Origin: Gemmatimonadota bacterium
Lineage (GTDB): Bacteria; Gemmatimonadota; Gemmatimonadetes; Gemmatimonadales; GWC2-71-9
Direction: 5' to 3'
Assembly (NCBI GenBank): GCA_037440225.1
Contig: JBBIUN010000008.1
Coordinates: 51,225 to 115,224, forward strand
Length of the DNA stretch: 64,000 nucleotides
Shown here piece after piece: positions 6,317 through 47,971 of the stretch (position 1 is the stretch's first letter; every line of letters begins with the position of its first letter). Position numbers and translations under genes: made by a program. The notes under the pieces are model-generated. The model saw only the letters and a list, made by a program, of their open reading frames with translations. It had not been told where the DNA came from and did no database searches.

Positions 6317-8002
6317 ATGGCGCCGGCCGCTCCGGAGTCCCAGGCGCGCTTCCCCATGGTCCCCGCCGACTACCAGCCGCCGCTCCCGCTGGATCGGCTG
6401 GTGATCCAGGAGCCCGCCGGCTCGGATGCCATCGAGTTGGATGTGCTGTTCGTGGGCGGCGGCCCCGCCAGCCTGGCGGGCGCCATCGCCCTGGCCCAGC
6501 TCATCCGCCGGGACAACGAGGCAGGCGGCGGCCTGGGCGACGTGAGCATCGGCGTGCTGGAGAAGGGCGAGCGGCTGGGCGACCACTGTTTATCCGGCGC
6601 GGTGGTCAACCCGATCGCGTTTCGCGAGCTGTTTCCCGACCTCGGCGATCAGGACTTCCCGTTCGGCCCGCCGGTGGAGAGAGAGGCGGTATATCTCTTG
6701 ACCCCGCGCGGCCAGATACGCCTGCCGACGCCGCCCACGATGCGCAACCAGGGGTGCTACGTGGCATCGCTCTCCGAGATGGTCCGGTGGCTGGGCGAGC
6801 GGGCCGAAGCCCTGGGTGTCAACATCCTGCCCGGATACCCCGCCGGCGCGCTACTGGTCAATGGCCGCCGGGTCGTGGGCGTGCGAACCACCCCCAAGGG
6901 GTTGGATCGGGACGGCCAGCCGGGGCCAGCATACCAACCCTCGGCAGACGTCACCGCCAAAGTCACGGCGCTGGGCGAGGGGAGCCGCGGGATGCTGACC
7001 CAGGCGTATCTCGAATGGCAGGGCATTAGCTCGCCAAACCCCCAGATCTACGCGCTCGGCGTCAAGGAGCTGTGGGAGACCAAGCAGCCGCTCGATCGGG
7101 TGATCCACACCATGGGCTGGCCGCTGCCCGGATACGCCTTCGGTGGGAGCTTCATGTACCCGCTCGAGGCCAACCTCGTGGCCTTGGGACTGGTGGTGGG
7201 CTTGGACGCGCCCGACGCCGCCCTCGACGTCCACGGACTGCTCCAGCGCCTCAAGCTCCATCCGTTCGTCCGCCGCTACCTGGAAGGCGGCGAACTGATC
7301 GAGTGGGGTGCCAAGACCATTCCCGAGGGCGGCTACTACGCGCTGCCCGAGCGGCGCTACGGAGACGGGCTGGTCATCCTGGGCGATGCTGCAGGGTTCG
7401 TCAACGTTCCGGCGCTCAAGGGCATTCACTACGCCATGCAATCGGGCATCTTCGCGGCGCGGGCCATCTTCGAGGCGCTGAAGCGCAACGACCCCTCCTC
7501 CGCCACGCTCGCCGCCTACGACCGGCTGGTGGACGGCTCCGCCATTCGGCAAGACCTCTACCGCACCCGCAACATGCGGCTGGCCTTCAAGGACGGCCTC
7601 TACGTCGGGGCGCTCAAGGCCGGCCTCATGACCTTGACCCGCGGCCGGTTCCCCGGGCGGCGGATCGCCCTGCACGCAGACGCCCGGTCGCCGCGCACGC
7701 GCGCGACACCGGTCGCCTACACGCCCGACGGCAAACTCACGTTCAGCAAGCTGGACGCGGTCTTCCGCTCGGGAAACACGACCCGGGATACCATCCCCTC
7801 GCACCTGGTTCCGGGTGCCACGATCCCCAGGAACGTGGCCGAGCTGTATGCCAGCCTCTGTCCCGCAGGGGTGTACGAGTGGGTGGACGGGCGGCTCCGC
7901 ATCAACCCGCCGAACTGTGTGGACTGCAAGGCCACCGACGTTCTGGGCCCGCGCTGGACACCCCGCGAGGGGGGTAGCGGCCCCAAGTACCGCCGGATGT
8001 AG
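6317..8002 (+). CDS. electron transfer flavoprotein-ubiquinone oxidoreductase (ETF-QO)
   Basis: N-terminal FAD fold 'VLFVGGGPASLAGA'. C-terminal 4Fe-4S region 'CPAGVYEW...NPPNCVDCKATD' and 'W..PEGGSGP.Y..M' tail typical of ETF-QO. Confidence 0.9.
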   Translation: MAPAAPESQARFPMVPADYQPPLPLDRLVIQEPAGSDAIELDVLFVGGGPASLAGAIALAQLIRRDNEAGGGLGDVSIGVLEKGERLGDHCLSGAVVNPIAFRELFPDLGDQDFPFGPPVEREAVYLLTPRGQIRLPTPPTMRNQGCYVASLSEMVRWLGERAEALGVNILPGYPAGALLVNGRRVVGVRTTPKGLDRDGQPGPAYQPSADVTAKVTALGEGSRGMLTQAYLEWQGISSPNPQIYALGVKELWETKQPLDRVIHTMGWPLPGYAFGGSFMYPLEANLVALGLVVGLDAPDAALDVHGLLQRLKLHPFVRRYLEGGELIEWGAKTIPEGGYYALPERRYGDGLVILGDAAGFVNVPALKGIHYAMQSGIFAARAIFEALKRNDPSSATLAAYDRLVDGSAIRQDLYRTRNMRLAFKDGLYVGALKAGLMTLTRGRFPGRRIALHADARSPRTRATPVAYTPDGKLTFSKLDAVFRSGNTTRDTIPSHLVPGATIPRNVAELYASLCPAGVYEWVDGRLRINPPNCVDCKATDVLGPRWTPREGGSGPKYRRM

Positions 8003-32752: not shown

Positions 32753-35700
32753 CTAGTCCGCCGGGACGCCGAGGGCGGCCCGTTCCTCGGGGGCGCTGGT
32801 CCAGCGCTTGACCAGCGCGCTCACCCGTTGGCCCAGGTCGTCCAGGTAGGTATAGACCACCGGGATCACCACCAAGGTGAGCAAGGTGGAGGTGATGAGC
32901 CCGCCGATCACGGCGTGGGCCATGGGGGCTCGGAACTCGGAGCCGGCGCCCAGGGCCAGGGCGGTGGGAAGCATGCCGAAGATCATGGCCAGGGTGGTCA
33001 TCACGATGGGCCGCAGCCTCAGTTCGCCCGCGTCAATCAAGGCTTCTCGCCGGTCCGCGCCGCGAGCCCGAGCTTTGTTGGCGAAATCCACCAGCAGGAT
33101 CGCGTTCTTGGTCACCAGGCCCATGAGCATGATCACGCCGATCATGCTCATGATGTTGAACGTGCCTCGGGTCACCATGAGGGCGAGCATGACGCCTACC
33201 AGCGAGAGCGGCAGCGAGATCATGATGGCCAGCGGCTGGAGGAAGCTGCCGAACTGGGACGACAGGATGAGGTAGATGAAGGTGACGGCCAGTACCAGCG
33301 ATTCGACCACGTAGCCCACCGTCTCGACGAAATTCTCCTGCTCCCCGCCGAAGTCGAATCGGTAGCCGGTCGGCAGCTCGATGGCGGCCAATCGCGTGCG
33401 CACGTCGCGCACCACCTCGGTGAGCGCCCGCCCCTCGTAGTTGCCCTCCAGCGTCACCACGCGCTCCAGGTTCAGGCGCTTGATCTGACTGGGCGCCGCG
33501 CTGGGCTGGATGGTGGCCACCTGTGCGAGCGGAACCATCACCGGCGCGCCGGTTCGCTGGTCTATCCGGCCGGTGGCCAGCGGGATGCGCCCCAGGTCGG
33601 CGGCGGACTCCCGGGCAGCCGGGTCCAGTTGCACGATGACGTCGTGCGCCAGGCCGGTCTCGTCCTCCCAGTTGCCCGCTTTCTGGCCCGAGAGGACGGG
33701 CCGCAGGCTGGCCCCGATCGCGCCGATGCCTAGGCCCACGTCGGCCGCGAGGTCGCGGTGGACGTCCACCACGAGTTCCGGCTTGCGCCCTTCCAGGCTG
33801 GACTTCAGGCCCACCAACCCGGGGACGTCGCGCAGCACCTCCAGCGCCCGGTCCGACATGGCCTGAAGGCGGCTCAATTCCGGTCCCTGCAGGTTGATCA
33901 GGATGGGGGCGCCGCCCGGTCCCATGCCAATGTGGGCTACCCGCAACGTCACCCCCTTGAACTGCGGGGCCGCCTGGCGGAGGAACGCCTCGAACTCCTG
34001 CTGGGAACGCTGCCGGGCATCTTTGGGCGTGAGCTTGATGAAGATCTGCCCCTTGTTGACCGCGTTGTTCTGCTGGGCACCCCCAATGGCGGCGTACGTC
34101 AGGGCGACCTCGGGCTGCTGCGCCAGCCAGCGAGCCACTTCCACCGCCTTGGCTTCGGTATAGCTGAGCGAGGAGCCTACCGGGGTCTCGAGGTCCAGCG
34201 CCGTGCGCTCCTGGTCCGAGGTGGGCACGAACTGCCCTCCCACGAGCCCCAGGCCGAAAAGACTCATGGCGGCCACGAAGGCTGCGGTGGCGATCCCCAG
34301 GGTCACGAGCCGGTGGTCCAGCGCCCAGGCAATGAGCCCGCGGTACGCCTTTCCCAGACGGCGGAACGACCCGTTGAAGCGCTCCAGGAGCCGGCCCACG
34401 GGCCCCCGGGGCGCCCGCCCCTCGGCCTGGGGATCGTACCACAAAGACGAGAGCATGGGATCGAGGGTGAACGAGACGAACAGGGACACCAGCACGGCGA
34501 AGGCTACGGTGATGCCGAAGGGATAAAAGAACCGGCCCACGATCCCCTTCATGAACGCCACGGGGATGAAGACCGCGATCACGGACGAGGTGGTGGCCAG
34601 CACCGCGAAGCCGATTTCCGACGTCCCGTGCCGGGCCGCGGTATAGTGATCCTCGCCCCGCTCCACGTGGCGCACGATGTTCTCCCGGACCACGATCGCG
34701 TCGTCAATCAGAATGCCGATGGCCAAGGACAGCGCCATCAGGGTCATCGTGTTCAGGGTGAAGCCGAAGGCGTAAATCGCTCCAAAGGCGGAGATCACCG
34801 AGACCGGCAAGGTGAGCCCCGTGATCACGGTCGAGCGCCACGAATTGAGGAACAGGAAGACGATGAGCACGGTGAGGGCGGCGCCCTCCACCAAGGTCTT
34901 CTGCACGTCGTCCACCGAGTTGCGGATCCAGGTCGAGTTGTCGTTGATCAAGTCCAGCCGGACGCCTCCGGGGAGCGTCCGGTTGAGCTGCTCCACGATC
35001 CGGTGGACCCCATCGGCCACATCCACCGTGTTCCCGCCGGAGACCTTGCGCACCTCCAGCACCACCGCCCGCTGGCCATTGACGTAGGCCGCATCCCGGG
35101 CATCCTCCTGGGCATCCTCGACCCGCGCCACTTGGCCCAGCCGCACCGGGGTGCCCCCCCGTACCGTCACCACCAGGCTCGCGAAATCCGCCGGGTCGCG
35201 GATGCGTCCTTGGACCCGCACCAGGTTCTCCGCGTTGCCCCGTTCGACGCGCCCAGCCGGGACGTCGGCGTTCTCCCGGCTCACCGCGGTCACGACCATG
35301 TCCGGGGATACCCCGAGAGCCTCCATGCGCGCGGGCTGGAGCAGGACGTGGATCTCGCGCTTCAAACCTCCCAGCACCGTCACGCTCCCCACGCCCGGGA
35401 CGTTCTCGATCCGCCGGCTCACCACCTCGTCCGCTAACCGGGTGAGTTCGCGCAGGGGCCACCCTTGGCCTCGCACTGCGATGGTCATGATGGGCTGCTG
35501 TGAGGGATCGGCCCGGGAGATAATGGGCGGATCAATGTCCCGCGGCAGTTCCAGCCGGATGGCGTCAATCTTGGAGCGCACGTCGGCTTGGGCATCCATG
35601 ATGTTGGTGCCCAGCTCGAACTCCACGAAGATGTTGGAAAAGCCTTCGGTGGACGTGGATTGGATCTGCTTGACCCCTTCGACCGGGTTGATGGCTTCCT

Positions 35701-35902
35701 CGATCTCCTTGGTCACCTCCCGCTCCACGGACTCCGGGCTCGCCCCGGGGTACCGCGTCTGGACCACCAGGAAGGGGAAATCCACCTCCGGGAACAGGTC
35801 AATGCTGAGCCGGCGATAGGAGAAGAGGCCCAGCACCACCAGGGCCATGATCATCATGGTGGCCAAGACCGGCCGCTTGATGGACAACTCGCTCAGAAAC
35901 AC
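32753..35902 (-). CDS. RND efflux transporter inner-membrane permease (AcrB/HAE1 family)
   Basis: 1049 aa with 12-TM / two-large-loop architecture. '[10 protein letters not shown]' N-terminus, '[16 protein letters not shown]', '[15 protein letters not shown]'. Confidence 0.95.
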
Positions 35903-35906
35903 GGCG

Positions 35907-36986
35907 TCAACCCTCCCGGCTCACGATGTTGACCGGATCGCCCACCCGGAGTCCTTCGACCGGGCCGACGATGGCCACTTCGCCCTCGCTGAGACCGGCC
36001 ACGATCTCTACCAAGTTCTGCACTTCGTCATAGAGCCCGATCGTGACGTCGCGCCGCGCGATGCGCCCGTCCGCTACGACCAGCACGTAGGTCGTGCCGT
36101 TGTCGTCCCGCCGAATGCCGCTCCGCGGCAGGGCCAAGGCGCCCCGGGCTTCGCGGGTCACCACCCGCCCCGACGCGAACAGCCCCGCTACGATGCGCCC
36201 CTCGGGATTGGGAACCTCGACGTACACCTTGACCTGGCGCGTGGCCGCATCGGCGGTGGCATTGATCCGGGCGACTCGGGCCGTGACACCAGGACCGTCG
36301 AGCCCGGTCACCGTGAGCAGCGCGGGCGCCCCCACCCGGATGTCGCCCACGTACTGGCTGGGCACCGTGGCGGAGAACTCGAGTCCCCTGATGTTCACCA
36401 ACCGGAACAGGGGATCACCGTCTTTGACTCGGTCGCCGGATTCGTGGAATCGCTGCGCGATCACGCCGTCCACCGGCGCCCGGACCGTAGCTTCCTCCAA
36501 GCGCTTGACCGCCGCCGCCTCGAGTGCCTCGGCGCCTCTCAGGGCCACTTCGGCGGCCTCGACGTCCCGCGCCGCCACCGCCCCCTCCCGATAGAGGCTC
36601 TGCATCCGTTCGTAGTCGGCCTGCGCGATGCGGCGCTGCGCCTTAGCGCTGGCAGCCTGCGGCGCCAGGGCCTGCGTGGAGAGCCGCGCCAGCACCTGCC
36701 CTCGCTTGACCGCCTGGCCCTCCTCGACCAGCACGGCCTCCAAGACCTCCGGAGCAGGCGCGTTGATCCGGATGTCCACCGCCGGATCCAGCGTGCCCGA
36801 AACCGGAACACCGGCGACCAAGTCGGTGCGCCGCACGGTCCAGACGTCGCTGGGCCCCAGGGTGGCAGCGGCAGGTGCGTCCGCCGAGGTCTCCGCCCGG
36901 CCGGGCGCCCCTCGGCACCCCGGCAGGGCCAGCGAAGCGGCCGCGAGGGAAAGGGTAAGCCCGTATGTCAAGGCACGATGAGTCAT
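35907..36986 (-). CDS. RND efflux periplasmic adaptor (MFP/HlyD family)
   Basis: Lipoprotein-like signal, coiled-coil hairpin region, beta-barrel 'VTARVARINATAD..TR...V.VEVPN'. Located 4 nt upstream of the RND gene. Confidence 0.9.
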   Translation of the reverse strand: MTHRALTYGLTLSLAAASLALPGCRGAPGRAETSADAPAAATLGPSDVWTVRRTDLVAGVPVSGTLDPAVDIRINAPAPEVLEAVLVEEGQAVKRGQVLARLSTQALAPQAASAKAQRRIAQADYERMQSLYREGAVAARDVEAAEVALRGAEALEAAAVKRLEEATVRAPVDGVIAQRFHESGDRVKDGDPLFRLVNIRGLEFSATVPSQYVGDIRVGAPALLTVTGLDGPGVTARVARINATADAATRQVKVYVEVPNPEGRIVAGLFASGRVVTREARGALALPRSGIRRDDNGTTYVLVVADGRIARRDVTIGLYDEVQNLVEIVAGLSEGEVAIVGPVEGLRVGDPVNIVSREG

Positions 36987-38392
36987 GAGTTAGGCTCCTC
37001 GCCAAGAATCGTGCGGCGCAGCTCGTCCAGCGAGCGGCGCTCCACCGCCACCGGACGGCCCAGCGCGCGCTCCAGCTGCGCCAGCGCGGACAGGTAATCC
37101 CGCATGGCCTGCGCTTCGTTGACCTGGGCCTGCTGCAAGAGCAGCCGCGCATCCGAAACCTCGAGCTGCGTGCTCAGGCCGTTGGCGTACCGCACCTGCG
37201 CGATGCGGTGAGCCTGCTCGGCCTGCCGGACGGTCTCCCGCCGCGCCAGCAACAGGACCTGGGTCCGCTTGAGTTCGCTTCGAGCCTGCGCCAGTTCCTG
37301 CGCGGCCTGCTCGCGCACCTGGTCGCGGGTGGCCACCGCACGCTCCAGTTGCGCCCGGAGCCGAGCCACGGTGCCCTCGGTCCTGAGGCCGTTGAAGAGG
37401 GGAATGGAGACCTTCACCGCGGCGTTCCAGTTCCGCCGGAACTGCTCGCCGAAGGGGAACAGCGCCGTGGGAAACGCCTGTTCGGAGAAGGTGGACGATA
37501 CCGACAGCGTGGGCCAGCGATCCGCCTGGGCCGCGCGCAGCAGGTGCTCCTGGACCCGCACCCCGGCTTCCGCGGCCGCCACCGCGGGACGCTGAGCCGC
37601 CTCGAGGTCCTCCTCCACCACCACCGGAATGGAACCGTCGGCGGTGATAAGCGGCGTGGTCAGTGCCAGCGGCCGCTCCACCGGGACGTTGATCAGCCGC
37701 TTGAGTTCAAGCAGCGCGAGGTCGTAGTCGTTCGCCGCCGCCACGACCAGCGGCTCCTGATTGGCGGCCTCCACCTGGGCCCGCAACAGGTCATATTCCG
37801 CGCGCGTGCCCGCCTGGTGGAACAGTTGCACCTGATGCAACTGCTGCCGGGCCTCCTGCACGGCCGCCAGCGCAACCCCCAGCAACCGCTGGCGATACTG
37901 GGCGTTGAGGTAGGCTTGCTTGACCCGAAAGACGAGGTCCTGAGCACTGGCCTGCTGGTTCTCCAGCGCCGCCTCGCGCGCGGCCTTGGCCGCCGCCAAG
38001 CCCGCTCCCACCTTGCCGGCCGAGAACACCAACTGCGAGGCCGTCAGATCGAACGCCCACGCGTTGGGGGCTCCAAAGGGCGATTTCTTGAACACGTTGG
38101 TGAAGCTGGTATCGCCCCCACCCCCGCCCCCCAGCCCTTGGAAAATGGAGGCGAACTGCCGCGTGTAGGTCACACCGCCGTTGATCTGCGGCAGCGCCCC
38201 CGCGAACGCCTCCCGCACCTGGCCATTGGTCTCCCAAACCTGCGCCCGAGCCAGGCGTACTTCCTCGCTCTGGCTGAGCGCGCGCTCCACGGCTTCCTCG
38301 AGCCCGATCCGCAAGGTATCGGTCTGGGCCCAAGCCTGGGCTGGGATCGCCAGCCACACCGCCACGGTCACCACCGGGATCATGTATCGCAT
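36983..38392 (-). CDS. TolC-family outer-membrane efflux protein
   Basis: Signal peptide 'VAVWLAIPAQAWAQ' and two OEP repeats. ATG 38392 follows GGAGGAAGG. The 3' end overlaps the MFP start (ATGA). Confidence 0.85.
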   Translation of the reverse strand: MRYMIPVVTVAVWLAIPAQAWAQTDTLRIGLEEAVERALSQSEEVRLARAQVWETNGQVREAFAGALPQINGGVTYTRQFASIFQGLGGGGGGDTSFTNVFKKSPFGAPNAWAFDLTASQLVFSAGKVGAGLAAAKAAREAALENQQASAQDLVFRVKQAYLNAQYRQRLLGVALAAVQEARQQLHQVQLFHQAGTRAEYDLLRAQVEAANQEPLVVAAANDYDLALLELKRLINVPVERPLALTTPLITADGSIPVVVEEDLEAAQRPAVAAAEAGVRVQEHLLRAAQADRWPTLSVSSTFSEQAFPTALFPFGEQFRRNWNAAVKVSIPLFNGLRTEGTVARLRAQLERAVATRDQVREQAAQELAQARSELKRTQVLLLARRETVRQAEQAHRIAQVRYANGLSTQLEVSDARLLLQQAQVNEAQAMRDYLSALAQLERALGRPVAVERRSLDELRRTILGEEPNS

Positions 38393-38406
38393 GCGCCTTC
38401 CTCCGT

Positions 38407-39036
38407 TCAGGCGGCCAGACCGTCCAGCACCAGCGAGATGCGTGCCGCCAGCTCCTCCCGCAACGGGAAACCCGCTTCCTCGCAGCCCGAGGTTCCCTTC
38501 CGGCAACACAGCCACATGAAGACCGTACCCATGTACACGCTGCCCAGCACCGAGACCGCACGGTCCACCGGAGCTTCGCGCCGGAACTCGCCCGCCTCCT
38601 GCCCCTGGCGAATGAGCTGCGCCAAGAGCCGGTGCCAGTGCACGTGCAAATCGTCACTGGGCGTGTGCGCCCGCTTCATGGATTCCTGCACCACGAACCG
38701 GGAAAGCTCGGGATCCTCCTCGTACACTCGAGCCGTGCGCTGCAACAGCTCGATGAGCTTCCTGCGAACCGGCCCCTGGGCCGCCAGCATCTCCTCGGCC
38801 AGCGCCTCGACCTCGGCAAGCTGTAGTTCCGAGAGGTAGCCCAGTACTGATTCCTTGCGCGGGAAGTAGTTGAAGAACGTGCCCTTGGCCACGTCCGCTC
38901 GCTCGGTGATCTCATCCACCGTCGTGGCCTCGAATCCCTTCTCGCGGAACAACGCCACGGCCGCCCTGAAGATCCGAGTGCGGGTCTCGTCCTTCTTACG
39001 TGCCCGGCGCGAGACTTCGGCTGCCGGTGTGCTCAT
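38407..39036 (-). CDS. TetR/AcrR-family transcriptional regulator
   Basis: N-terminal HTH 'TR.RI..AA..LF.EKGFEATTVDEI.ERA.VAKGTFFNYF'. GGAGAGG lies 4 nt upstream of the ATG. Confidence 0.9.
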   Translation of the reverse strand: MSTPAAEVSRRARKKDETRTRIFRAAVALFREKGFEATTVDEITERADVAKGTFFNYFPRKESVLGYLSELQLAEVEALAEEMLAAQGPVRRKLIELLQRTARVYEEDPELSRFVVQESMKRAHTPSDDLHVHWHRLLAQLIRQGQEAGEFRREAPVDRAVSVLGSVYMGTVFMWLCCRKGTSGCEEAGFPLREELAARISLVLDGLAA

Positions 39037-39093: not shown

Positions 39094-39113
39094 TGACTAT
39101 GGTCAACAATGAA

Positions 39114-39130
39114 CCGGTTACAATAACCGG
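39114..39130. promoter_or_regulatory. perfect 7-3-7 palindrome
   Basis: CCGGTTA-CAA-TAACCGG, about 80 nt upstream of tetR. Second candidate operator or another regulator site. Confidence 0.3.
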
Positions 39131-39171
39131 CGCTCTCTGAAGTGGCAAGGGGCAGCACCGGAGCGGCGGGT

Positions 39172-39258: not shown

Positions 39259-40356
39259 TCAATGCGGCCAAGCGGGATCCAGCCAGGCCTGAAGAGGCTG
39301 GGTGCGGCGCAAGGCCGCCGGGTGGCGTCGAAACCAGCTCAGTACCAGCAGCATCTCCTCCACGGTATCGGGTGCCAGGGCGGCCGGCTCCGGCTCTGGG
39401 CCGGCGTGCGCCGCCACCAGCGCGCGGAAAGCCTCGCGCTCGATGGGTGTCACCGGAGCCGGGGCCGAAGCGCGGACCGTGGCCCGGCGGATCACGTACG
39501 CGCGAGCATCGCCCAAGGCCCCCGGGTCGGTGTACACGAAGGTCAAGGCCGCGATCGCCGCCCGGGCGCGCATGGAGGCGGCCAGGAGCCATTCCAGCGC
39601 CTCGAAGCGTTCCCTCAGGCGCGCGGCGCGCTCGAACTGCTGGGCCTCCATCGCCGCGGTCATCTCGGTGATGACGCGATCCAGAGGACCCAGCGCCCGG
39701 CCTTCCAGGAAGGCGGCTGCGGCGGCGACCCGGGCGCGGTAGTCGGTTTCCGCCACCAAGCCGCCGCAGGGGCCGCTGCAGGTGCCGAAGTCGTAGCGCG
39801 GGCAGGCGGCGCGCCGGCTCGAGCCGAACAGATCTCCCTGCTCGGCAAAGTGCATGGGCAAATCGAGGGCGCAGTCTCTCAGGCCCAAGAGGTCGTTCAG
39901 CACTCGGACCGCCTGCCCGGTGCGGGCCGGACTGGGGAAGGGCCCGTAATGGGTCATGCCGGCCGATGGGGTGGCCGCCGCGACGAACACCTTGGGGGCG
40001 GGCCGGCCGGAAATCTTGATGAAGGCGAGCCGCCGCGAGCGGTTGAACTGGGCGTTGAACAGGGGGCGGTAGCGCCGGATCTGGCGCAGCTCGGCCAAGC
40101 AGGCGGCGAACTCGGAAGGTTGATAGTCCCACTCGATGTCGGCGGCGGCCCGAATGATGCGGCCGGCCTTCTCGTCGCTGCCGGCCGACCGGAAGTAGCT
40201 CAGCAGGCGGGCGCGCAGGCGCTTGGCCTTGCCTACGTACAGCACGCGTCCCCCCGGGTCCAGCATGCGATAGACGCCGGGCCGGTTCTCGGCCAGGGCC
40301 CAAACGCGCCGCCGGAGAGGCTCCAGGTTGCCCAGCGCCAGCCCCAGCGCGCTCAC
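39259..40356 (-). CDS. UvrC-N-terminal-half homologue (Cho-like GIY-YIG excinuclease)
   Basis: GIY-YIG 'GVYRMLD..GRVLYVGKAKRLRARLLSYF', UvrC-type Cys cluster 'CPRYDFGTCSGPC', UVR-like helix 'AMEAQQFERAARLRERFEAL'. Lacks the RNase H-like/HhH C-terminal half of UvrC. Confidence 0.75.
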   Translation of the reverse strand: MSALGLALGNLEPLRRRVWALAENRPGVYRMLDPGGRVLYVGKAKRLRARLLSYFRSAGSDEKAGRIIRAAADIEWDYQPSEFAACLAELRQIRRYRPLFNAQFNRSRRLAFIKISGRPAPKVFVAAATPSAGMTHYGPFPSPARTGQAVRVLNDLLGLRDCALDLPMHFAEQGDLFGSSRRAACPRYDFGTCSGPCGGLVAETDYRARVAAAAAFLEGRALGPLDRVITEMTAAMEAQQFERAARLRERFEALEWLLAASMRARAAIAALTFVYTDPGALGDARAYVIRRATVRASAPAPVTPIEREAFRALVAAHAGPEPEPAALAPDTVEEMLLVLSWFRRHPAALRRTQPLQAWLDPAWPH

Positions 40357-40365
40357 CGCCTGGCC

Positions 40366-41370
40366 TCAGGACCTGCCACGCAGGTAGTCGTGCAAGGTGA
40401 GGAACTTCTCGTACACCACTAGGGCCTTGCGCTTGAGCCCCAGCTCGGCAAACAGTTCCCGCATGCGGCCGCGGCGGGTCACATAAAAGCGGAACGTTTC
40501 GGCAAAGTCCTCCTGGGGGTGGGTGGCCGCGTAGCTGGAGACGTACTCCGGCAAGGTGGTGGCCACGCGCCGGCGCTGGAAGTCCACCCAGGTGTCGTCC
40601 ACGCCCCGGTAGGTCTTGTACACCTCGCCAAAGGTGCGGCGAAACCGGTCGCTTCGGGTCCAGCGCCAGTTGTGATAGAGAAAACTGTGGCCCAATTCAT
40701 GCGCCAGCAGGCCCACCAGCATGGGCCAGTCAATGTCGTCGCGCGACGGGCGGTCGGTGACGTAGCGCTGCTCGATTTCCACGATCTTGGGCCAGCGGGG
40801 ATCCACCCCCGAGACGCCGGGTCGCAGCAGGACGCGGAAGCCCCAAGGCTTGATGCGGGCGACGGCCAGCAGGCGGCGCACCCGGCGCAGGGCCGGCCGA
40901 AGGAGGTCTTGCCCCGTGGCATCGCCGCGGCACCAGGGACAGTGGTCCATCCAATCGTCCACCCCGCGCCCGCAGTGGGGACAAGACCCCTCGAATTCCT
41001 GGGACTCGTCCCAGTGCTGGGGCTTGCCGCACCAGGGACAGTATGGCATAGGGTACTGCAGGCCGCCGCCGCAGCCCCAGTCGCACCGGGCGTGAAACCG
41101 GAAGCCCTTGGGGGCCTTGAGCGGCACCGGGCTGCTGACCCCGTCTTCGTGGATGTCGGCACCGCACCAGGGGCAGAAGGCGTACTTCTCCGAGACTACC
41201 CAGCCGCACTGGTAGCACTCCGCTCCGGTGAGCCGCTCGCTGTCTCGCCAGAGGTGAGCCCGGCCGCAATCGGGGCAATAGCGCCAGAAGCGCTTGAGCT
41301 CGTAGCCGCAGGCGCACCGGAGTTCGGGCCGCGGCGTGGGTTCCCGCCGGCGGTTACGGTTCCGCGTCAT
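40366..41370 (-). CDS. four-zinc-ribbon protein with C-terminal HExxH (putative zinc-binding metallopeptidase-like) domain
   Basis: Four tandem CxxC...(Y/F/H)CP(D/W)C ribbons at aa 19-35, 52-69, 96-114 and 130-147. Then 'LLAHELGHSF' (aa 221-230) and 'HPQEDFAETFRFY'. Confidence 0.7.
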   Translation of the reverse strand: MTRNRNRRREPTPRPELRCACGYELKRFWRYCPDCGRAHLWRDSERLTGAECYQCGWVVSEKYAFCPWCGADIHEDGVSSPVPLKAPKGFRFHARCDWGCGGGLQYPMPYCPWCGKPQHWDESQEFEGSCPHCGRGVDDWMDHCPWCRGDATGQDLLRPALRRVRRLLAVARIKPWGFRVLLRPGVSGVDPRWPKIVEIEQRYVTDRPSRDDIDWPMLVGLLAHELGHSFLYHNWRWTRSDRFRRTFGEVYKTYRGVDDTWVDFQRRRVATTLPEYVSSYAATHPQEDFAETFRFYVTRRGRMRELFAELGLKRKALVVYEKFLTLHDYLRGRS

Positions 41371-42373
41371 AGCGCCGCATGGCCTCGTCTACGATGCGCT
41401 GGATGAAGGCCGGGTAGTCGAGACCGGCTTTCTCGGCCGCGTTCGCCATGTCGTGTCCGAAGCTGATGAACGGGTTGGCGTTCGCCTCGATCACCCAGAC
41501 GTCGCCGTCGGGTGTGAGCCGCAGGTCCAAGCGGGCGTAATCCCTGAGCCAGAGCGCCCGGTACGCGGTAGCACAGATACCGGCGATCCGCTGCCGGGCC
41601 GCCCGCGGGATGGGCCGCGCGAAAACGTTGCGGATTCCCTTGCGCTCCCGGTACGCCAGGTCCCATTTCGCGAGGTGGGTGGCGATGCGCTCTTCGGGGC
41701 GGGTGCGCCGCTTGTCCCAAACCATCTCGACGATCGGCAAGATCGCGAGGTCGGAGCCGTTGCCCAAGATGCTCACGTACAGCTCGCGGCCGTCCACGAA
41801 CTCCTCGGCGATGGCCGGCTGCCGGAAGCGCTCGTGGATGAAGGCCACCCGCGCGGCCAGCTCGCCGGGATCTTTCACCACCGAGGCGCCCGAAATGCCG
41901 ATCGAGGCATCCTCGGACAACGGCTTGACAATGACCGGGAAGATGAGGTCCGAGATCTCCCCCACGGCTTCCCCGGGCCGGTAGGTGCGAAACCCCGGCA
42001 CCCGAATGCCGTGATACGCCAGGACCTTCTTGCTCATGGCTTTGTTGCGCGTGGTGAGCAAGGCCAGGGGGGGAGAGCCGGTGTAGCGATAGCCCTCCGC
42101 TTCGAAGAGGGCGGGGAAGAGGTAATCGAGCGCGGGGTTGCCGCCGAAACCTTCGGCACAGTTGAACACCAAGTCGGGCTGGAAGGCCCGGAGGCGATCC
42201 ATGAGGCACTTCAAGTCCGTGCGGACCCCGATGAGCCGAACGTCGTGTCCGCGACTGGCGAGGGCTTCTGCCACCTCGTACTCCGCCTCCTCGACTCCAG
42301 CCTCCATCTCCCGCCGAAAGTCGGCGTCCTCCCAACCGGCATGCGGGGTGTCGAAGACCACCGCGATCTTCAT
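41354..42373 (-). CDS. ATP-grasp ligase (D-Ala-D-Ala ligase / RimK-like superfamily, non-canonical)
   Basis: 'KIAVVFD', 'PDLVFN.AEG', 'GY.YTGS', 'NKAMSKKVLA..GI.VP', 'FPVIVKP..EDAS.GI', 'ARLDLRL...G.VWVIEANANP'. ATG 42373 overlaps the mutM stop (ATGA). Confidence 0.85.
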   Translation of the reverse strand: MKIAVVFDTPHAGWEDADFRREMEAGVEEAEYEVAEALASRGHDVRLIGVRTDLKCLMDRLRAFQPDLVFNCAEGFGGNPALDYLFPALFEAEGYRYTGSPPLALLTTRNKAMSKKVLAYHGIRVPGFRTYRPGEAVGEISDLIFPVIVKPLSEDASIGISGASVVKDPGELAARVAFIHERFRQPAIAEEFVDGRELYVSILGNGSDLAILPIVEMVWDKRRTRPEERIATHLAKWDLAYRERKGIRNVFARPIPRAARQRIAGICATAYRALWLRDYARLDLRLTPDGDVWVIEANANPFISFGHDMANAAEKAGLDYPAFIQRIVDEAMRRYDAEP

Positions 42374-43203
42374 GGGGCCGACTGACAGCGCCAGCAGAAG
42401 GTGGTCGAGCGCCCGTCCACCGCGTAGGTCGTATGGAGCCGCGTGCCGCAGGCCAGGCAACGCTGGCCCCCGCGGCCATAAACGCGCAACGCGAACTGGT
42501 ACCCTCCGCGCTCCCCCGTTCCCGTGCGATAGTCCCGGAGGGTGGTGCCCTTGGCGGCCAGCGCCTCCTCCAGCACCGCCCGCAGGGCCCCGTGCAGGCG
42601 GCTCAGGGCGCCCGCGTCCAACCGGTGCGCGGGCCGGGAGGGATCAATCCCCGCTCGGAACAAGGCTTCGTTGGCATAGATGTTCCCGATCCCCGCCACG
42701 CGCCGCTGGTCCATGAGGGCCTTCTTGACCGCCTGCCGCGTCGCTTTGAGCTGCCGGGCCAGGGCGGCCACGTCGAACGCCGGCGAGAGAGGTTCCGGCC
42801 CCAGGGCCTCGGTGTACCGCCGCCAGGCCGCTTGGTCCAGCAGCCGCACCACGCCCAAACGCCGGACGTCACGGTAAACGAACGTGCCGCCCCCGCCCAG
42901 GTCCGCTTCCAACACGACGTAGCGGCGCGCGGCGGGATCGAGCCGGCGCCGGTACACCAGCAAGTTCCCCGTCATCCCCGGCTGGATCACCATCCGGTGC
43001 CCGCTGGCCAGGCGGAAGACGGCGTGCTTGGCCCGGCGGCTCACCTCGGCGATCCGGTTCCCTGCCAGGGTGGCGAGGAGCCGGCGCGGGCTCGTGCCTC
43101 GCAGAACGTCCGCCTTGAGCAGCCGCACCGAGCGCATGGTGCGCCCGGTGAGGTCGCGGGCTAGGTCCCGCACCATGGTCTCGACCTCAGGAAGCTCGGG
43201 CAC
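42370..43203 (-). CDS. mutM: formamidopyrimidine-DNA glycosylase
   Basis: GTG 43203 yields 'M-PELPEVET', which places the catalytic Pro at position 2 as Fpg requires. H2TH region and C-terminal zinc finger 'CLACG...........FCWRCQ'. Confidence 0.9.
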   Translation of the reverse strand: MPELPEVETMVRDLARDLTGRTMRSVRLLKADVLRGTSPRRLLATLAGNRIAEVSRRAKHAVFRLASGHRMVIQPGMTGNLLVYRRRLDPAARRYVVLEADLGGGGTFVYRDVRRLGVVRLLDQAAWRRYTEALGPEPLSPAFDVAALARQLKATRQAVKKALMDQRRVAGIGNIYANEALFRAGIDPSRPAHRLDAGALSRLHGALRAVLEEALAAKGTTLRDYRTGTGERGGYQFALRVYGRGGQRCLACGTRLHTTYAVDGRSTTFCWRCQSAP

Positions 43204-44464
43204 GCGCCACCTCGCGCCAGGCGATGTCGCGGCGAAAGATCTTCCCCTCGTACTGAATGGCATCGGCCAGCGCCCGGCTGGCCTGGGCGGCGGCGGCGAC
43301 GTCTGGGCCCAGGCCCGTGGCGCCGAGGACCCGGCCCCCCGCCACCCTGAGCCGCCCCTCGGCGTCCCGCCTGGTGCCGGCGTGGAAGAGCAGGGTGTCG
43401 GGTGGAAGGGACGGCGGCAGGCTGATGAGTGCGCCTTGCTTGGGGGCGTCCGGGTAGCCGCTCGACGCCAGCACCGTTACCACGGCCGACCGCTGGGGCG
43501 CAAGCAGGAAGCGTCGAGGGCGCCAGGGCTCGCCCGCAGCGATCTGCCAAAACGCGGTCGCGAGGTCCTCCGCCAGCGCCGGCAGCACCGCCTGGGTCTC
43601 CGGGTCGCCGAAGCGGCAGTTGAACTCCAGCACGTAGGGGTCTCCGCCGGGCGTGAGCATCAAGCCGGCGTAGAGCACTCCCCGGTAGGGCGTACCGTGT
43701 TCGGCCATCACCCGGAGCACCGGTAGCAAGATCTCGCGCCTGACCCGCTCGAGCAGCTCCTCCGTGCCCAGCGAGACCGGCGTGTAGGCCCCCATGCCGC
43801 CGGTGTTGGGCCCGGTGTCGCCTTCGCCTAGACGTTTGTGGTCTTGCGCGGGCGGTAGCAGCACCACCTGCTCGCCGTCGGTGAGCCCCAAGACCGACAA
43901 TTCCTCCCCCTCCAAGAACTGCTCCACCACCACGTGTTGCCCTGCGGCGCCGAACTTGCCGCCGAACATCTGGCGAGCCGCCGCAGCGGCTTCTTGCCGA
44001 GTGCGGCAGACCACGGCACCCTTGCCGGCTGCGAGCCCCGAGGCCTTGACCACCAGGGGCTCGGGATGGCCTGCAATGTAGCGGATCGCGGCTCGCTCGT
44101 CGTCGAACGTGCGACTGGGGGCGGTCGGCACTCCCGCCCGCGCCATGACCTGCTTGGCGTAGGCCTTGGAGGCTTCGATGCGGGCGGCGGCGGCCGTGGG
44201 TCCGAAGGCGGGAATGCCCCGGGCGGCGAGGTGGTCCACCAGGCCCGCGGCGAGCGGCGCCTCCGGACCCACCACCACGAGATCAATGTGGTGGCGCCGG
44301 ATGGCCTCCACCAAAGCATCGGGCTGGTCGCCGGTGAGGGGGAGGTTTATCGCCACTTCTGCGGTGCCGGGGTTCCCCGGTGCGCAGTGGACGGCGGCCT
44401 GGCGGGCGAGCATCCAGCACAGGGCATGCTCCCGGCCCCCGCCGCCCACTACCAGGATTCTCAC
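43187..44464 (-). CDS. purD: phosphoribosylamine-glycine ligase
   Basis: 'RILVVGGGGREHAL', 'VVKASGLAAGKGV', 'GPNTGGMGAY', 'LEFNCRFGDPE'. GTG 44464 overlaps the M48 stop (GTGA). The 671-aa track ORF is a chimera. Confidence 0.92.
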   Translation of the reverse strand: MRILVVGGGGREHALCWMLARQAAVHCAPGNPGTAEVAINLPLTGDQPDALVEAIRRHHIDLVVVGPEAPLAAGLVDHLAARGIPAFGPTAAAARIEASKAYAKQVMARAGVPTAPSRTFDDERAAIRYIAGHPEPLVVKASGLAAGKGAVVCRTRQEAAAAARQMFGGKFGAAGQHVVVEQFLEGEELSVLGLTDGEQVVLLPPAQDHKRLGEGDTGPNTGGMGAYTPVSLGTEELLERVRREILLPVLRVMAEHGTPYRGVLYAGLMLTPGGDPYVLEFNCRFGDPETQAVLPALAEDLATAFWQIAAGEPWRPRRFLLAPQRSAVVTVLASSGYPDAPKQGALISLPPSLPPDTLLFHAGTRRDAEGRLRVAGGRVLGATGLGPDVAAAAQASRALADAIQYEGKIFRRDIAWREVARARAS

Positions 44465-45468
44465 CGCTTGGTGGCGTCCTTGAAGGTTTCGCTGAAGGCG
44501 CGAGCCGCTCGCCGCGCGGCCTCGGCCACCTGGTCCACCGTTTTTCGCGCCTCGGCGGCGTAGTGCGCCGCCGCTTCCCCGACTTCCTCGCCCAGGGTGC
44601 GCTGCGAGGTGGCAGCATCCCGCCTGGGGTAGTCGCCCTCCAGAATCCGCTGGTAGGCGCCGCTGTCGGCCCATCGCTTGAGTTCGGCGGCGCGCAGGGT
44701 GTTGAACGGATGGGTCGCGCCCAAGGTATTGAGAATCTTGTAAATGGTGTCCAGGGCCCCGCCCTTTTCCTCGTACTCGCTGGCCTGCTCGAGAAAGGCC
44801 TCCACGTCCATCTGCTCCATGCTGGCCCCGCCGGCGAGCTTGAGAAACACCCGGTTCGCTGCGGCGGGATCCTGGCTGGCCAGCAGGCCGGCGCGATCCG
44901 AGGAGAGTTCGCTTTTCCGGTACCATTCCAGCAGCGCCAGCTTGATGGGAAGCAAGGCGATCCCCGCCAGGAAGGGCAGGCTCTGGAAGCCCAGCTCCAG
45001 CAGGAGAATCAGCACCGTACGGTAGAGGGCGTGCCCGCTGATCACGTGCCCCAACTCGTGGCCCAACAGAACGCGTAGCTCGTCCGTGTCGAGCAGGTTG
45101 ACCGCGCCGGAGTTGAGGATGATGAACGGGCGCTCGAGGCCCACCGCGCCCGCGTTGACCAACGGCGTCTGGGTGACGTACACCTCGGGCGCCTGGGGCC
45201 AATCCATGGTGGCGGACACTTCGGTGATCAACCCGTGGAGGATCGGGAACTGCCTGGGCCCCACGCGCACCGCGTTCGCCTGGAACAAGAGGCGGATGCC
45301 GCGCTCGCCAAAGGTGCCCACGATCTTCCGGACGGCTTCATCAAAGCCGGGGATGGCGCGCAGGGTTTGCAGGGCGGCGCGGTCGGCGGGGTGTTCCCAG
45401 GTCACCGGGGCGATCTGCGTGAGCACCTTCCGGGGACGAGGCGAGGGGAGCGTGGTGGCGTCAGGCAT
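44461..45468 (-). CDS. M48-family zinc metallopeptidase
   Basis: 'LLGHELGHVISGHALY' HExxH and a downstream 'SELSSDRAG' (E..DR) third-ligand region. GGAGGTATTGCC precedes the ATG. Confidence 0.85.
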   Translation of the reverse strand: MPDATTLPSPRPRKVLTQIAPVTWEHPADRAALQTLRAIPGFDEAVRKIVGTFGERGIRLLFQANAVRVGPRQFPILHGLITEVSATMDWPQAPEVYVTQTPLVNAGAVGLERPFIILNSGAVNLLDTDELRVLLGHELGHVISGHALYRTVLILLLELGFQSLPFLAGIALLPIKLALLEWYRKSELSSDRAGLLASQDPAAANRVFLKLAGGASMEQMDVEAFLEQASEYEEKGGALDTIYKILNTLGATHPFNTLRAAELKRWADSGAYQRILEGDYPRRDAATSQRTLGEEVGEAAAHYAAEARKTVDQVAEAARRAARAFSETFKDATKR

Positions 45469-45600: not shown

Positions 45601-46782
45601 TCACTCCAGCGCCTTAGCCAGGGCCTGGTCCAGATCCGCCCGCAGATCGTCCACGTCTTCGATCCCGACCGACAGGCGCACCAGCCCGTCGCTCAAGCCC
45701 ATGGCCTCCCGCATGGCACGCGGCACGCTGGCGTGGGTCATGCTGGCCGGGTGGCCCACCAAACTCTCCACCCCGCCCAACGACTCGGCCAGGGCGAAGA
45801 TCCGGGTGCTTTGCACGAACCTGCGGGCCCGCGCGGCGGACCCCAATTCCAGCGAGATCATGCCCCCGAAGCCGGTCATTTGCCGGCAGGCCAGGTCGTA
45901 TTGGGGATGGCTGGTGAGGCCCGGATAGTAGACCCGTTGCACCGCAGGATGACCCTCCAGCCATTCGGCCAGGCAGCGGCCGTTTTGGTCGTGCTGGCGC
46001 ATGCGCAGCGTCAAGGTCTTGGTGCCGCGCAGGGCCAGCCAGCAGTCGAACGGTCCGGGCACCGCACCCGCCGCGTTTTGGAGAAAGGCCAGTCGCTCGG
46101 CCAAGTCATCCCGGTTGGTGATCACCGCGCCGCCCACCATATCGCTGTGGCCGTTCAGGTATTTGGTCGTGGAGTGGATCACCAGGTCGGCACCGAGGGC
46201 CAGGGGGCGCTGGAAGACCGGGGTGGCGAAGGTGTTGTCCACCACCAGCAGGACTCCCCGCTCGCGGGCCAGAGCCCCGACGGCCGCCAGGTCGGTGAGC
46301 CGCATCATCGGGTTCGACGGCGTCTCGACGAAGATCATTCGGGTGGCGGGCGTGAAAGCTTCGGCGATCCGGTCCACCTCGCGGGTGTCCGCGAAGCTGA
46401 ACCCGAGCCCGAGGTCGGCGAAGACCTGGGTCATGAGGCGATGGGTGCCGCCGTAGACGTTTTCCCCGCACACCACGTGGTCGCCGGCCCGGAGCAGCTT
46501 GAGCACTGCGTCGGTGGCGGCCAGGCCCGAGGCGAAGGCGAAGCCGTGGGTGCCGCCCTCGAGCGCCGCGAGATTCCGTTCCAGGGCGTCCCGGGTGGGA
46601 TTGCGGGTGCGGGCGTACTCGAATCCCTTGTGCTGGCCCAGCGCAGGTTGCACGTAGGTCGAGGTCTGGTAGATGGGGGTCATGATGGCGCCCGTGGGCT
46701 CATCGGGCCGCTGGCCCGCGTGGACCGCGCGGGTGCCGAGCCCCAACTTGAGGTCGGACTCGAAGATCCGGGTCATGGGCAC
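45601..46782 (-). CDS. PLP-dependent trans-sulfuration enzyme (cystathionine gamma-synthase/beta-lyase/gamma-lyase family)
   Basis: 'T.AVHAG', 'YSR..NPT', 'DNTFATP', 'HSTTKYLNGHSD' (PLP lysine), 'SLGGVESL'. Start may be ATG 46776 rather than GTG 46782. Confidence 0.9.
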   Translation of the reverse strand: MPMTRIFESDLKLGLGTRAVHAGQRPDEPTGAIMTPIYQTSTYVQPALGQHKGFEYARTRNPTRDALERNLAALEGGTHGFAFASGLAATDAVLKLLRAGDHVVCGENVYGGTHRLMTQVFADLGLGFSFADTREVDRIAEAFTPATRMIFVETPSNPMMRLTDLAAVGALARERGVLLVVDNTFATPVFQRPLALGADLVIHSTTKYLNGHSDMVGGAVITNRDDLAERLAFLQNAAGAVPGPFDCWLALRGTKTLTLRMRQHDQNGRCLAEWLEGHPAVQRVYYPGLTSHPQYDLACRQMTGFGGMISLELGSAARARRFVQSTRIFALAESLGGVESLVGHPASMTHASVPRAMREAMGLSDGLVRLSVGIEDVDDLRADLDQALAKALE

Positions 46783-46873
46783 TTCGCGAGGAGGTCGCAG
46801 GGGAACCTACACCCGCGCCGCCGGGCGCGGCAAGCGACTGGCCCGGCCGGCTCAGGGCGGGTACGTTTTCCGC

Positions 46874-47971
46874 ATGGGTTCCGAGGCCGTCCGCTGTCTG
46901 GTGGTGGACGACGAGCCGCGCATCCGCGATGCGCTGGCGCGGGTCTTGGAGAGCGTGGGCTACCGGTGCCAGCAGGCCGGCAGCGCGGGGGCGGCGCTCG
47001 AGGCCTTGGAGCGCGAAGCGTTTCCCGTGGTGCTCTCGGACATTCGGATGCCGGGCATGGACGGGGTGGCACTCCTCAACCAGATCCGCCAACGGTGGCC
47101 TGACACCGCGGTCCTGATGCTCACCGCCGTGGCCGAGGTGGAAACCGCCGTCGCCTGCCTCCAGGCCGGCGCCTTCGACTACATCCCCAAGCCCTTTCAG
47201 GTGGACGAGGTGCGGGCCCGCGTGGCGCAGGCCTTGGAGAAACGCCGTCTGCTCTTGGAGAACCGGCGCTATCAGGAGCATCTGGCGGAAATGGTCGAGC
47301 AGCAGGCGCTGCGCATCGAGGAATTGTTTCTCGAAGGAGTGCAGACCTTGGCCCACGCCTTGGAGGCCAAGGACGCCTACACCCAGGGCCACTCGGCCCG
47401 GGTTTCGGCGTACGCGGGGCGCGTGGCCCGGGAACTCGCCATCGCCGAGGCGGACATCCAGCTCATCGAGCTGGGGGCGGAGTTGCACGATATCGGCAAG
47501 ATCGGGGTGCGAGAGGCGGTGCTGCACAAGCCGGCCCGGCTCACCGATGAAGAATACCGGCATATCATGCAACATACCGTGATCGGGGCCCGGATCCTGA
47601 GCCCGCTGCTCAAGCATGCCCCGCAAGTCTTGGCCGTGGTGCGGTCGCATCACGAGCGCTTGGACGGCCGGGGGCTGCCCGACGGCTTGGTGGGGGAGCA
47701 GATCCCGTTTCCGGCGCGGGTGGTGGCGGTAGCCGACGCCTTCGATGCCATGACCACGGGCCGGCCGTACCGGCCGCCGCGGACGGTGCGCGACGCCTTG
47801 AACGAGTTACGGATGGGAGCCGGCACCCAGTGGGACCGGTCCGTGGTAGAAGCCTTCTTCGCGGCGTGTGACGGCATGGGGCAACTGCCCATTCCCACGC
47901 CGGCCGTGGTACGGCGCCGCGTGCCCCATCGGGTGGCGGCAGGATCCCTGGGGGGCCCGCCGCTCGCCTGA
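46874..47971 (+). CDS. response regulator with HD-GYP phosphodiesterase output (RpfG-like)
   Basis: REC: 'LVVDDEP', 'VVLSDIRMPGMDG', 'LTA', 'KPF'. HD-GYP: 'GHSARV', 'LHDIGKIG', 'HHERLDGRGLPDG'. Start set at ATG 46874. Confidence 0.9.
   Translation: MGSEAVRCLVVDDEPRIRDALARVLESVGYRCQQAGSAGAALEALEREAFPVVLSDIRMPGMDGVALLNQIRQRWPDTAVLMLTAVAEVETAVACLQAGAFDYIPKPFQVDEVRARVAQALEKRRLLLENRRYQEHLAEMVEQQALRIEELFLEGVQTLAHALEAKDAYTQGHSARVSAYAGRVARELAIAEADIQLIELGAELHDIGKIGVREAVLHKPARLTDEEYRHIMQHTVIGARILSPLLKHAPQVLAVVRSHHERLDGRGLPDGLVGEQIPFPARVVAVADAFDAMTTGRPYRPPRTVRDALNELRMGAGTQWDRSVVEAFFAACDGMGQLPIPTPAVVRRRVPHRVAAGSLGGPPLA

Follow-up and report, generated by a model that had tools for sequence, protein, structure and literature searches.

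A translationally coupled pair of a Ddl-lineage ATP-grasp ligase and a multi-zinc-ribbon metallopeptidase in Gemmatimonadota

Two adjacent minus-strand genes in a 64,000-nucleotide stretch of a Gemmatimonadota genome (assembly GCA_037440225.1, contig JBBIUN010000008.1, positions 51,225 to 115,224; hereafter the window) were found to constitute a translationally coupled, co-inherited two-gene module. The upstream gene (41354..42373) encodes a 339-aa ATP-grasp ligase with the fold of D-alanine--D-alanine ligase, Ddl (Pfam Dala_Dala_lig_C, 5e-22), and the downstream gene (40366..41370) a 334-aa metallopeptidase-like protein, here called ZnMx, which combines zinc ribbons (DZR, 1e-9) with a Peptidase_Mx domain (PF15887, 1e-12). 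The module belongs to Gemmatimonadota alone, apart from a branch found in genomes labelled Myxococcota. The reading that we favour, at about even odds, is an autonomous unit of the cytoplasm whose two enzymes form and cleave an amide bond on a peptide or protein, and no DNA-damage system. The G+C content of the window is about 70%, and its nearest relatives are metagenome-assembled genomes (MAGs) of Gemmatimonadales.

In order to follow the pair across genomes, 185,579 species-representative genomes were scanned, which gave 296 loci with a relative of ZnMx; the best 80 of these were fetched (locus numbers below carry the prefix L), and the presence of the ATP-grasp gene beside ZnMx was scored by tblastn. 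In 72 of the 80 loci, the gene directly upstream and on the same strand as ZnMx is the ATP-grasp gene, as a rule with an overlap between the two; in the window, the ATP-grasp stop and the ZnMx start share a 17-nt overlap (41354-41370, minus strand). Among the other eight loci, four (L036, L038, L047 and L051) are truncated by the end of a contig or disrupted by a frameshift, while in the remaining four (L002, L005, L008 and L023) ZnMx has no adjacent ATP-grasp gene. The pair is also intact in L081-L083, in a divergent Gemmatimonadota clade (L084-L087, about 60% identical), where the overlap is 20 nt, and in the Myxococcota-labelled loci L044, L045, L049, L061 and L082 (Haliangiales, Kofleriaceae). 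Thus, the proximity of an ATP-grasp gene and a zinc-ribbon/HExxH gene, to which an earlier note on this DNA had drawn attention, is conserved well outside the close relatives of the window. Across 75 loci, the pairwise distances of the two proteins correlate with r = 0.88.

The four ZnMx proteins encoded without a neighbouring ligase gene keep all 16 ribbon cysteines and all of the catalytic residues. In three groundwater Gemmatimonadota MAGs (L002 7101-8942, L005 7149-8999 and L008 5188-7103), mutM is followed directly by ZnMx, and not even a remnant of the ATP-grasp gene is seen. The fourth copy (L023 8001-8993) is a second, solo ZnMx that adjoins a large open reading frame (ORF), by eye similar to Slt-type lytic transglycosylases; a complete pair (L018) is found in the same bin, and the solo copy represents either a paralogue or bin contamination. 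Three apparent fusions of the ATP-grasp C-terminus to ZnMx (P0251, P0253 and P0263), considered as Rosetta-stone evidence, were rejected as frameshifted read-throughs in low-quality assemblies. Near the pair of L082 there are also genes for a Ser/Thr kinase and for a further DZR-rich protein of 714 aa.

The Myxococcota-labelled ZnMx proteins are about 66-70% identical to the window protein, as compared with about 60% for the divergent Gemmatimonadota clade, which suggests that the pair has moved between phyla as a unit. Such a transfer, together with a highly variable genomic context, is what would be expected of a mobile module related to ribosomal-peptide or toxin-antitoxin systems, in which the two enzymes would process a small precursor peptide or serve for addiction or defence. 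We regard this explanation as very improbable. Clustering of ORFs revealed no third gene or precursor peptide conserved with the pair across clades, but only clade-specific neighbours, namely a 163-aa ORF in 7 loci and a divergent ORF of about 87 aa in about 35-38 loci, neither of which has a homologue in the window. Moreover, the ATP-grasp protein is of the Ddl type and not of the graspetide type, the sequences are very highly conserved, and genomes usually hold a single copy. No copies were found on known plasmids or phages, and none of the PADLOC defence models matched ZnMx, the ATP-grasp protein, or the M48-family and Cho-like proteins encoded in the same gene string (see below). The ORF of about 87 aa, which has no Pfam match, is divergent and lies directly upstream of the ATP-grasp gene in the largest clade (L007, L013 and L035 among others; in L035 at 6538-6930, minus strand).

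The ATP-grasp protein, which begins with MKIAVVFDTP, descends from the Ddl lineage. By sequence, the nearest proteins of solved structure are Ddl enzymes (E = 1e-18), and with an AlphaFold2 model (predicted local distance difference test, pLDDT, 85.7) the top 50 Foldseek matches were all Ddl or Van ligases, with E-values down to 1e-24, template modelling (TM) scores of 0.66-0.85 and 20-24% identity. Ddl and VanA/VanG also give its best PDB and NCBIfam matches, and their fold, ATP/Mg residues and acyl-phosphate residues are shared. However, its scores fall below the cut-off of every NCBIfam Ddl/Van model, with 114 bits against 243 for the best one (PRK01372) and 99 against 246 for TIGR01205. 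The earlier description of the protein as Ddl/RimK-like therefore stands in its first half, for fold and lineage, and not in its second, since the RimK model PF08443 matches 52 residues only (E = 0.0088; 16 bits against 21). The remark that no cell-wall genes surround the ligase gene was borne out within the window, where no second Ddl gene was detected either.

For residue mapping, the window protein and 30 further family members were aligned to E. coli DdlB, with a reference sequence that was checked for length and for 14 residue identities. The residues for ATP/Mg binding and phosphoryl transfer are all kept as K111, K150, E190, E197, K236, R281, D283, E296 and N298 (DdlB K97, K144, E180, E187, K215, R255, D257, E270 and N272), and they are invariant in the 31 family members. 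In contrast, every D-Ala determinant checked has been replaced. The position of DdlB E15, the anchor for the alpha-amino group of the first D-Ala, is variable in the family, and the surrounding GGxSxE motif has become FDTP...W. Further replacements are fixed in the family: S150 to A and Y216 to W, S281 to H and L282 to D at the residues that bind the carboxylate of the second D-Ala, and G276 to F (DdlB numbering). In the window protein these correspond to A156, W237 (41663-41665), H307-D308 (41450-41455) and F302, respectively (all minus strand). The omega-loop region is about 15 residues longer than that of DdlB, and two segments of low pLDDT (156-158 and 303-306) coincide with the two mobile lid loops, both of which are kept. 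Assignment of the protein as a true Ddl was rejected on account of the replaced determinants and the scores below all Ddl cut-offs. Given that the catalytic residues are kept and the D-Ala pocket is replaced, the protein is predicted to be an active, Ddl-derived ligase that joins carboxylates to amines with ATP but differs from Ddl in specificity, and the loss of E15 would be compatible with a carboxylate donor other than a free amino acid. Public entries name these proteins "ATP-grasp domain-containing protein" or, in the case of JGI entries, "D-alanine-D-alanine ligase"; the latter usage is misleading, and genes of this family should not carry the name "D-alanine--D-alanine ligase".

The partner, known in public databases as "putative zinc-binding metallopeptidase", consists of four N-terminal zinc ribbons followed by the peptidase domain. 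The ribbons (residues 19-147; 40930..41316, minus strand) contain 16 cysteines arranged in CxC/CxxC ... CPWC pairs, mostly with CPWC motifs, and 15 of these cysteines are invariant in the two alignments examined (A1 and A2), whereas C19 is conserved in at least 90% of the sequences. The PF15887 match (48.4 bits against a gathering cut-off of 27) extends over residues 218-298 and includes the HExxH motif. For the best 120 matches listed, identity in the family is 64-96%, and PF15887 is precomputed on all of them. Signal peptides are absent from both ZnMx and the ATP-grasp protein, and ZnMx is cytoplasmic.

The HELGH sequence and the downstream stretch 'HPQEDFAETF' that had been picked out earlier are indeed present. 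The former, which would provide zinc-binding and catalytic residues (H224, E225 and H228; 40687..40701, minus strand), is invariant in A1 and A2; its translation was checked, as was that of the ribbon segment. The latter belongs to the stretch YAATHPQEDFAE, with Y280 and E287 (40498..40533, minus strand), in which Y280, H284, P285, E287, D288, F289 and E291 are invariant in the same alignments. In PPEP-3, one of the Pro-Pro endopeptidases (PPEPs), the oxyanion tyrosine is Tyr190 and the third zinc ligand is Glu197 (PMC12828418). The Tyr-x6-Glu spacing of Y280 and E287 in ZnMx is the same, and, as far as can be read from sequence, Y280 is predicted to be the oxyanion tyrosine and E287 the third zinc ligand. 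With the complete set of HExxH, Tyr and Glu that is typical of lethal factor and the PPEPs, ZnMx looks like an active peptidase.

The AlphaFold2 model of ZnMx has a pLDDT of 86.5 and a predicted TM score of 0.79, with a low-confidence loop at residues 255-266. Structure searches with it returned no significant match; the best PDB entries were anthrax lethal factor and Pro-Pro endopeptidases (E = 0.02-0.1), and the best BFVD entry was a phage "lethal factor" (3e-3). The protein thus shares the HExxH motif and the downstream Tyr-x6-Glu with the M34-type gluzincins (lethal factor, PPEP-1/Zmp1 and PPEP-3), but the fold matches are weak (E >= 3e-3, TM about 0.2-0.45), a sequence-level family match is lacking (Pfam M34 did not match), and a disordered insert of about 20 residues, which includes the low-confidence loop, separates the HExxH from the tyrosine. 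The M34 enzymes are also secreted toxins or adhesin-processing proteases, whereas ZnMx is a cytoplasmic protein.

The only solved relatives of ZnMx by sequence are two Bacteroidota lipoproteins, 9urd and 4l7a, which belong to the 'substrate import-associated zinc metallohydrolase lipoproteins' (TIGR04549) within Peptidase_Mx. They share the HExxH domain, and the C-terminal helices of 9urd align with those of ZnMx around a ...YA..ExEDF.E... motif. Nevertheless, ZnMx reaches only 24 bits with TIGR04549, against a cut-off of 75, and while the known Peptidase_Mx members are secreted lipoproteins, ZnMx resides in the cytoplasm, carries four N-terminal ribbons and has an ATP-grasp partner. The genes for the Bacteroidota lipoproteins adjoin those for SusC/SusD transporters, and we know of no biochemical function for either these lipoproteins or ZnMx. 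When a profile of the Mx domain was compared with 1.84 billion representative proteins, all of the 23 matches at E <= 1e-30 were members or fragments of the same family, and the next relatives outside it appeared at about 1e-9. Two of these nearest outsiders in the representative library, P0290 and P0298 (E ~1e-9), are Lys-rich and have an HExxH...HPQEDFAEVF domain at the N-terminus; as to the C-terminal parts, one protein has a zinc ribbon there and the other an HGDE motif that may be of the M14/AstE type.

The ZnMx family is narrow, yet very conserved. The mean pairwise identity of ZnMx is about 76% across the fetched genomes, and in syntenic loci the identity to the window protein (68-82%) is above that of the products of the neighbouring genes purD (58-77%) and mutM (58-71%), a sign that the protein does something important in the cytoplasm, in a phylum that has been little studied. 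ZnMx is also more conserved than the ATP-grasp protein (mean pairwise distance of 0.24 as against 0.32). This difference and the translational coupling of the two genes would fit an explanation in which ZnMx is the main effector, either a regulated protease or a protease-like regulator, in a manner comparable to MtfA, and the ATP-grasp protein an accessory that modifies, activates or antagonises it instead of acting with it on a third partner; the existence of intact solo copies of ZnMx would be explained as well. However, neither end of ZnMx has a conserved acidic or otherwise distinctive tail that could serve as a ligation site, and the complete catalytic set of the ATP-grasp protein is itself strongly conserved. 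We consider this explanation unlikely.

Taken together, the properties of the two proteins are consistent with the following scheme. The ligase, derived from Ddl and retaining the acyl-phosphate chemistry, would join a carboxylate to an amine at the expense of ATP; as its substrate pocket has been rebuilt, D-Ala-D-Ala is not the expected product. ZnMx would act as a gluzincin of the lethal-factor/PPEP type, placed behind four ribbons that most likely dock it onto a macromolecule. One enzyme would make, and the other hydrolyse, amide bonds of one class, and the two may share a substrate, presumably a peptide or protein, according to the writer-and-eraser logic of RimK/RimB and TTLL/CCP. A peptide or protein is favoured by the endopeptidase-type arrangement of the catalytic residues, by the four ribbons, by the loss of the alpha-amino anchor in the ligase, and by the fact that no genes of a small-molecule pathway are conserved with the pair. 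For a conserved pair, the earlier proposal that such a ligase and peptidase add and trim amino acids appears reasonable.

Several observations weigh against this reading. Every fold match of the ZnMx peptidase domain is weaker than E = 1e-3. The solo ZnMx proteins, with their residues intact, indicate that ZnMx can persist without a neighbouring ligase gene. In one locus of the divergent clade, L086 (CP070722.1), a gene for O6-methylguanine-DNA methyltransferase (MGMT; 7018-7563) with Methyltransf_1N and DNA_binding_1 domains follows ZnMx on the same strand at a distance of 7 nt. Finally, the characterised enzymes of the Ddl lineage are, to our knowledge, all small-molecule ligases, which favours a small-molecule product and makes it the main rival. 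The ligase would in this case make a dipeptide or pseudopeptide, and ZnMx would either supply the amino acid from peptides or remove product that competes or is in excess, the part that VanX plays for VanA. It is also true that the closest relatives of the ligase, both by sequence and by fold, are all small-molecule ligases of the D-Ala-D-X type, and that its active site keeps the two mobile lid loops. On the other hand, the pair is not accompanied by a conserved racemase, transporter or other gene of biosynthesis, the anchor for the alpha-amino group of the first substrate is lost, and four ribbons combined with a lethal-factor/PPEP-type endopeptidase set would be unusual in a dipeptidase. 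We treat the small-molecule pathway as a real possibility, although on this evidence a minority one.

Returning to action on a peptide or protein, its most specific form can be put forward only tentatively, as a doubtful candidate: an undescribed reversible protein-tailing system, in which the Ddl-derived ATP-grasp enzyme would attach one amino acid or several to a carboxylate on some conserved protein of the cytoplasm and the ribbon-docked, lethal-factor-like peptidase would remove them, and which would have arisen independently of RimK and the TTLs. Pairs of ATP-grasp enzymes and peptidases are a recurring means of adding and removing peptide tags or of building small peptides. In RimK/RimB and TTLL/CCP, an ATP-grasp writer is paired with a peptidase that erases amino-acid tails; the pairing is the same here, but the ligase is of the Ddl lineage rather than of the RimK or TTL type, and the peptidase belongs to a different family. 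In LysX-LysW-LysK, an ATP-grasp ligase works with a zinc-ribbon protein and with a metallohydrolase for product release; the zinc-ribbon protein, LysW, is a small carrier in its own right whose C-terminal tail is acidic. The ribbons of ZnMx are instead fused to the hydrolase, the acidic tail is lacking, and the pair is found without a context of lysine or arginine biosynthesis. We know of no characterised ATP-grasp/peptidase pair in which the ligase comes from the Ddl lineage. What is unusual is a Ddl-lineage enzyme that has lost the D-Ala pocket and is locked to a multi-zinc-ribbon gluzincin. No description of the pair was found in the literature searched, although a mention in the survey of ATP-grasp amidoligases by Iyer et al. 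(2009, Mol Biosyst) is possible; ligase/peptidase modules as such are known, and it is the architecture of a Ddl-lineage ligase with a multi-ribbon gluzincin that, as far as was found, has not been described previously.

The position of the pair between two repair-related genes, mutM and a Cho-like gene, had led to the earlier suggestion of a DNA-damage-linked module for peptide ligation or protein modification, acting for example on DNA-protein crosslinks or on a repair factor. The coupling to mutM upstream and to the nuclease gene related to the N-terminal half of UvrC downstream is tight. The complete string, with genes for a Cys/Met-metabolism pyridoxal phosphate (PLP) enzyme, an M48-family peptidase, purD, mutM, the pair and the Cho-like protein, occurs in 13 of the 80 loci and in 2 more genomes found via the ligase, so that the linkage to mutM and cho does extend beyond this genome, but it is confined to one sub-lineage. 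In the ZnMx alignment, the 13 string-bearing loci are mostly each other's nearest relatives, as expected for one inherited arrangement, and even within this lineage, L003 and L046 have no Cho-like gene behind the pair. Besides the two repair genes, the string contains genes for purine synthesis, sulfur amino-acid metabolism and a membrane-type peptidase, and is thus better described as a mixed housekeeping string.

For a wider view, both flanks were surveyed in 88 loci, 20 neighbouring ORFs were annotated with Pfam, and genes were called in nine further loci. Over 30 distinct contexts came to light. In the largest clade, of about 31 loci, the pair is flanked by a divergent small ORF on one side and a convergent gene of the amine-oxidase family on the other, and the immediate neighbours elsewhere include genes for CorA, a Na/H exchanger, NicO, a GMC oxidoreductase, an amidohydrolase, an AMP-binding enzyme, Uma2, DUF6265, DUF445, PGA_cap, an M29 peptidase and a sensor kinase. 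A repair gene beside the pair is lacking in about 60 of the 80 loci and in most of the contexts. Outside the lineage of the window, the MGMT gene of L086 is the only repair gene directly adjacent to the pair among about 30 annotated immediate neighbours, and this frequency is about background. Other repair-type genes, all on the strand opposite to the pair, were noticed at a distance: Lhr-type helicase genes 4-5 kb downstream in two loci of the divergent clade (L085, from 12930; L087, from 11068) and a uracil-DNA glycosylase (UDG) gene about 4 kb downstream in L081 (12911-13516). Although these genes might be counted in favour of a repair link, their presence is probably coincidental.

Regulatory and domain signatures were examined as well. 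No LexA box of the E. coli, Cheo, alphaproteobacterial or cyanobacterial types (with up to one mismatch) was found upstream of the M48 gene, though these types may not match the LexA of Gemmatimonadota; the sole near-matches upstream of the PLP enzyme gene fall inside the coding sequence of a divergent response regulator. SprT-like or WLM domains were not detected in ZnMx by Pfam at E <= 0.01, nor among its top 50 PDB matches. The single SprT-type BFVD match (E = 0.04) covers 81 columns and spans only the generic zincin core, and the zinc ligands of SprT and Wss1 are arranged differently from the predicted third-ligand Glu and helper Tyr of ZnMx. With no enrichment of repair genes outside one lineage, no LexA box of a known type and no SprT/Wss1 signature, the DNA-damage explanation is not supported, and we hold it to be improbable. 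The place of the pair between mutM and the Cho-like gene looks like the inherited gene order of one sub-lineage rather than a repair function. The tight operon coupling to mutM is in this case no sign of a repair role, and the flanking repair genes, which were the striking feature at first, do not hold up as a functional link. Both are flanking genes and not members of the module.

The gene string of the window itself is as it had been outlined earlier: the six minus-strand ORFs are present at the coordinates given there, and all five junctions were borne out by direct reading of the sequence. One detail needs specifying, namely that the two junctions listed as "17 nt" are correctly positioned and are both overlaps, not gaps. 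The first gene (44461..45468) encodes an M48-family zinc peptidase (PF01435, 3.7e-21), and its stop overlaps the GTG start of purD in a GTGA at 44461-44464. The housekeeping gene purD (43187..44464), for phosphoribosylamine-glycine ligase (TIGR00877, 454 bits against a cut-off of 288), overlaps mutM by 17 nt (43187-43203). The mutM/fpg gene (42370..43203) encodes formamidopyrimidine-DNA glycosylase (NF002211, 260 bits against a cut-off of 212) with the Pfam domains Fapy_DNA_glyco, H2TH and zf-FPG; it starts with GTG-CCC-GAG-CTT, that is (M)PELPEVE, so that the N-terminal catalytic proline is present. An ATGA at 42370-42373 joins mutM to the ATP-grasp gene, and a 9-nt gap (40357-40365) separates ZnMx from the Cho-like gene (39259..40356), the last of the co-directional string.

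The Cho-like protein is a paralogue of the N-terminal half of UvrC, with GIY-YIG and UVR domains (UvrC TIGR00194 over residues 8-229, 6e-39). Like Cho, it is without the C-terminal nuclease and HhH of UvrC. Both domains score slightly under their Pfam cut-offs, and the protein is nearest to the C-terminal, GIY-YIG-bearing part of fusion proteins with a DEDD exonuclease (NF005906, 1.7e-45). The label "Cho-like" is thus apt as regards domains and similarity to the UvrC N-terminal half, but not at the level of the Cho equivalog, since NF007833 gives 59 bits against a cut-off of 367.

On the same strand, 132 nt upstream of the M48 gene, lies the gene for the Cys/Met-metabolism PLP enzyme of the cystathionine gamma-lyase/synthase type (45601..46782; PF01053, 5e-155). 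Being close by, on the same strand and syntenic as the upstream member of the string in L001-L012, L067, L068, L074 and L089, it may bring the string to seven genes and share their transcript. No terminator-like sites above chance were detected within the gene string, and no Rfam match was obtained anywhere in the window. A response regulator with an HD-type output domain, as read by eye, is encoded divergently from the PLP-enzyme end of the string (46673-47971, plus strand).

Downstream, the string is bounded by a separate TetR/RND-efflux (resistance-nodulation-division) unit. Just upstream of its TetR-family gene, a promoter-like TTGCCA-17-TATTGT overlaps the palindrome GCCGGTTATTGTAACCGGT (8-bp arms; 39113-39148). 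The genes that follow are all on the minus strand: the TetR gene (38407-39036), the only one of them confirmed by Pfam, a gene for an outer-membrane factor (36983-38515), a periplasmic adaptor-like gene (35907-36986) and an ORF of about 1055 aa (32753-35920) that probably encodes an RND pump. The arrangement looks like a TetR-controlled efflux operon, with the palindrome at 39113-39148 as its probable operator.

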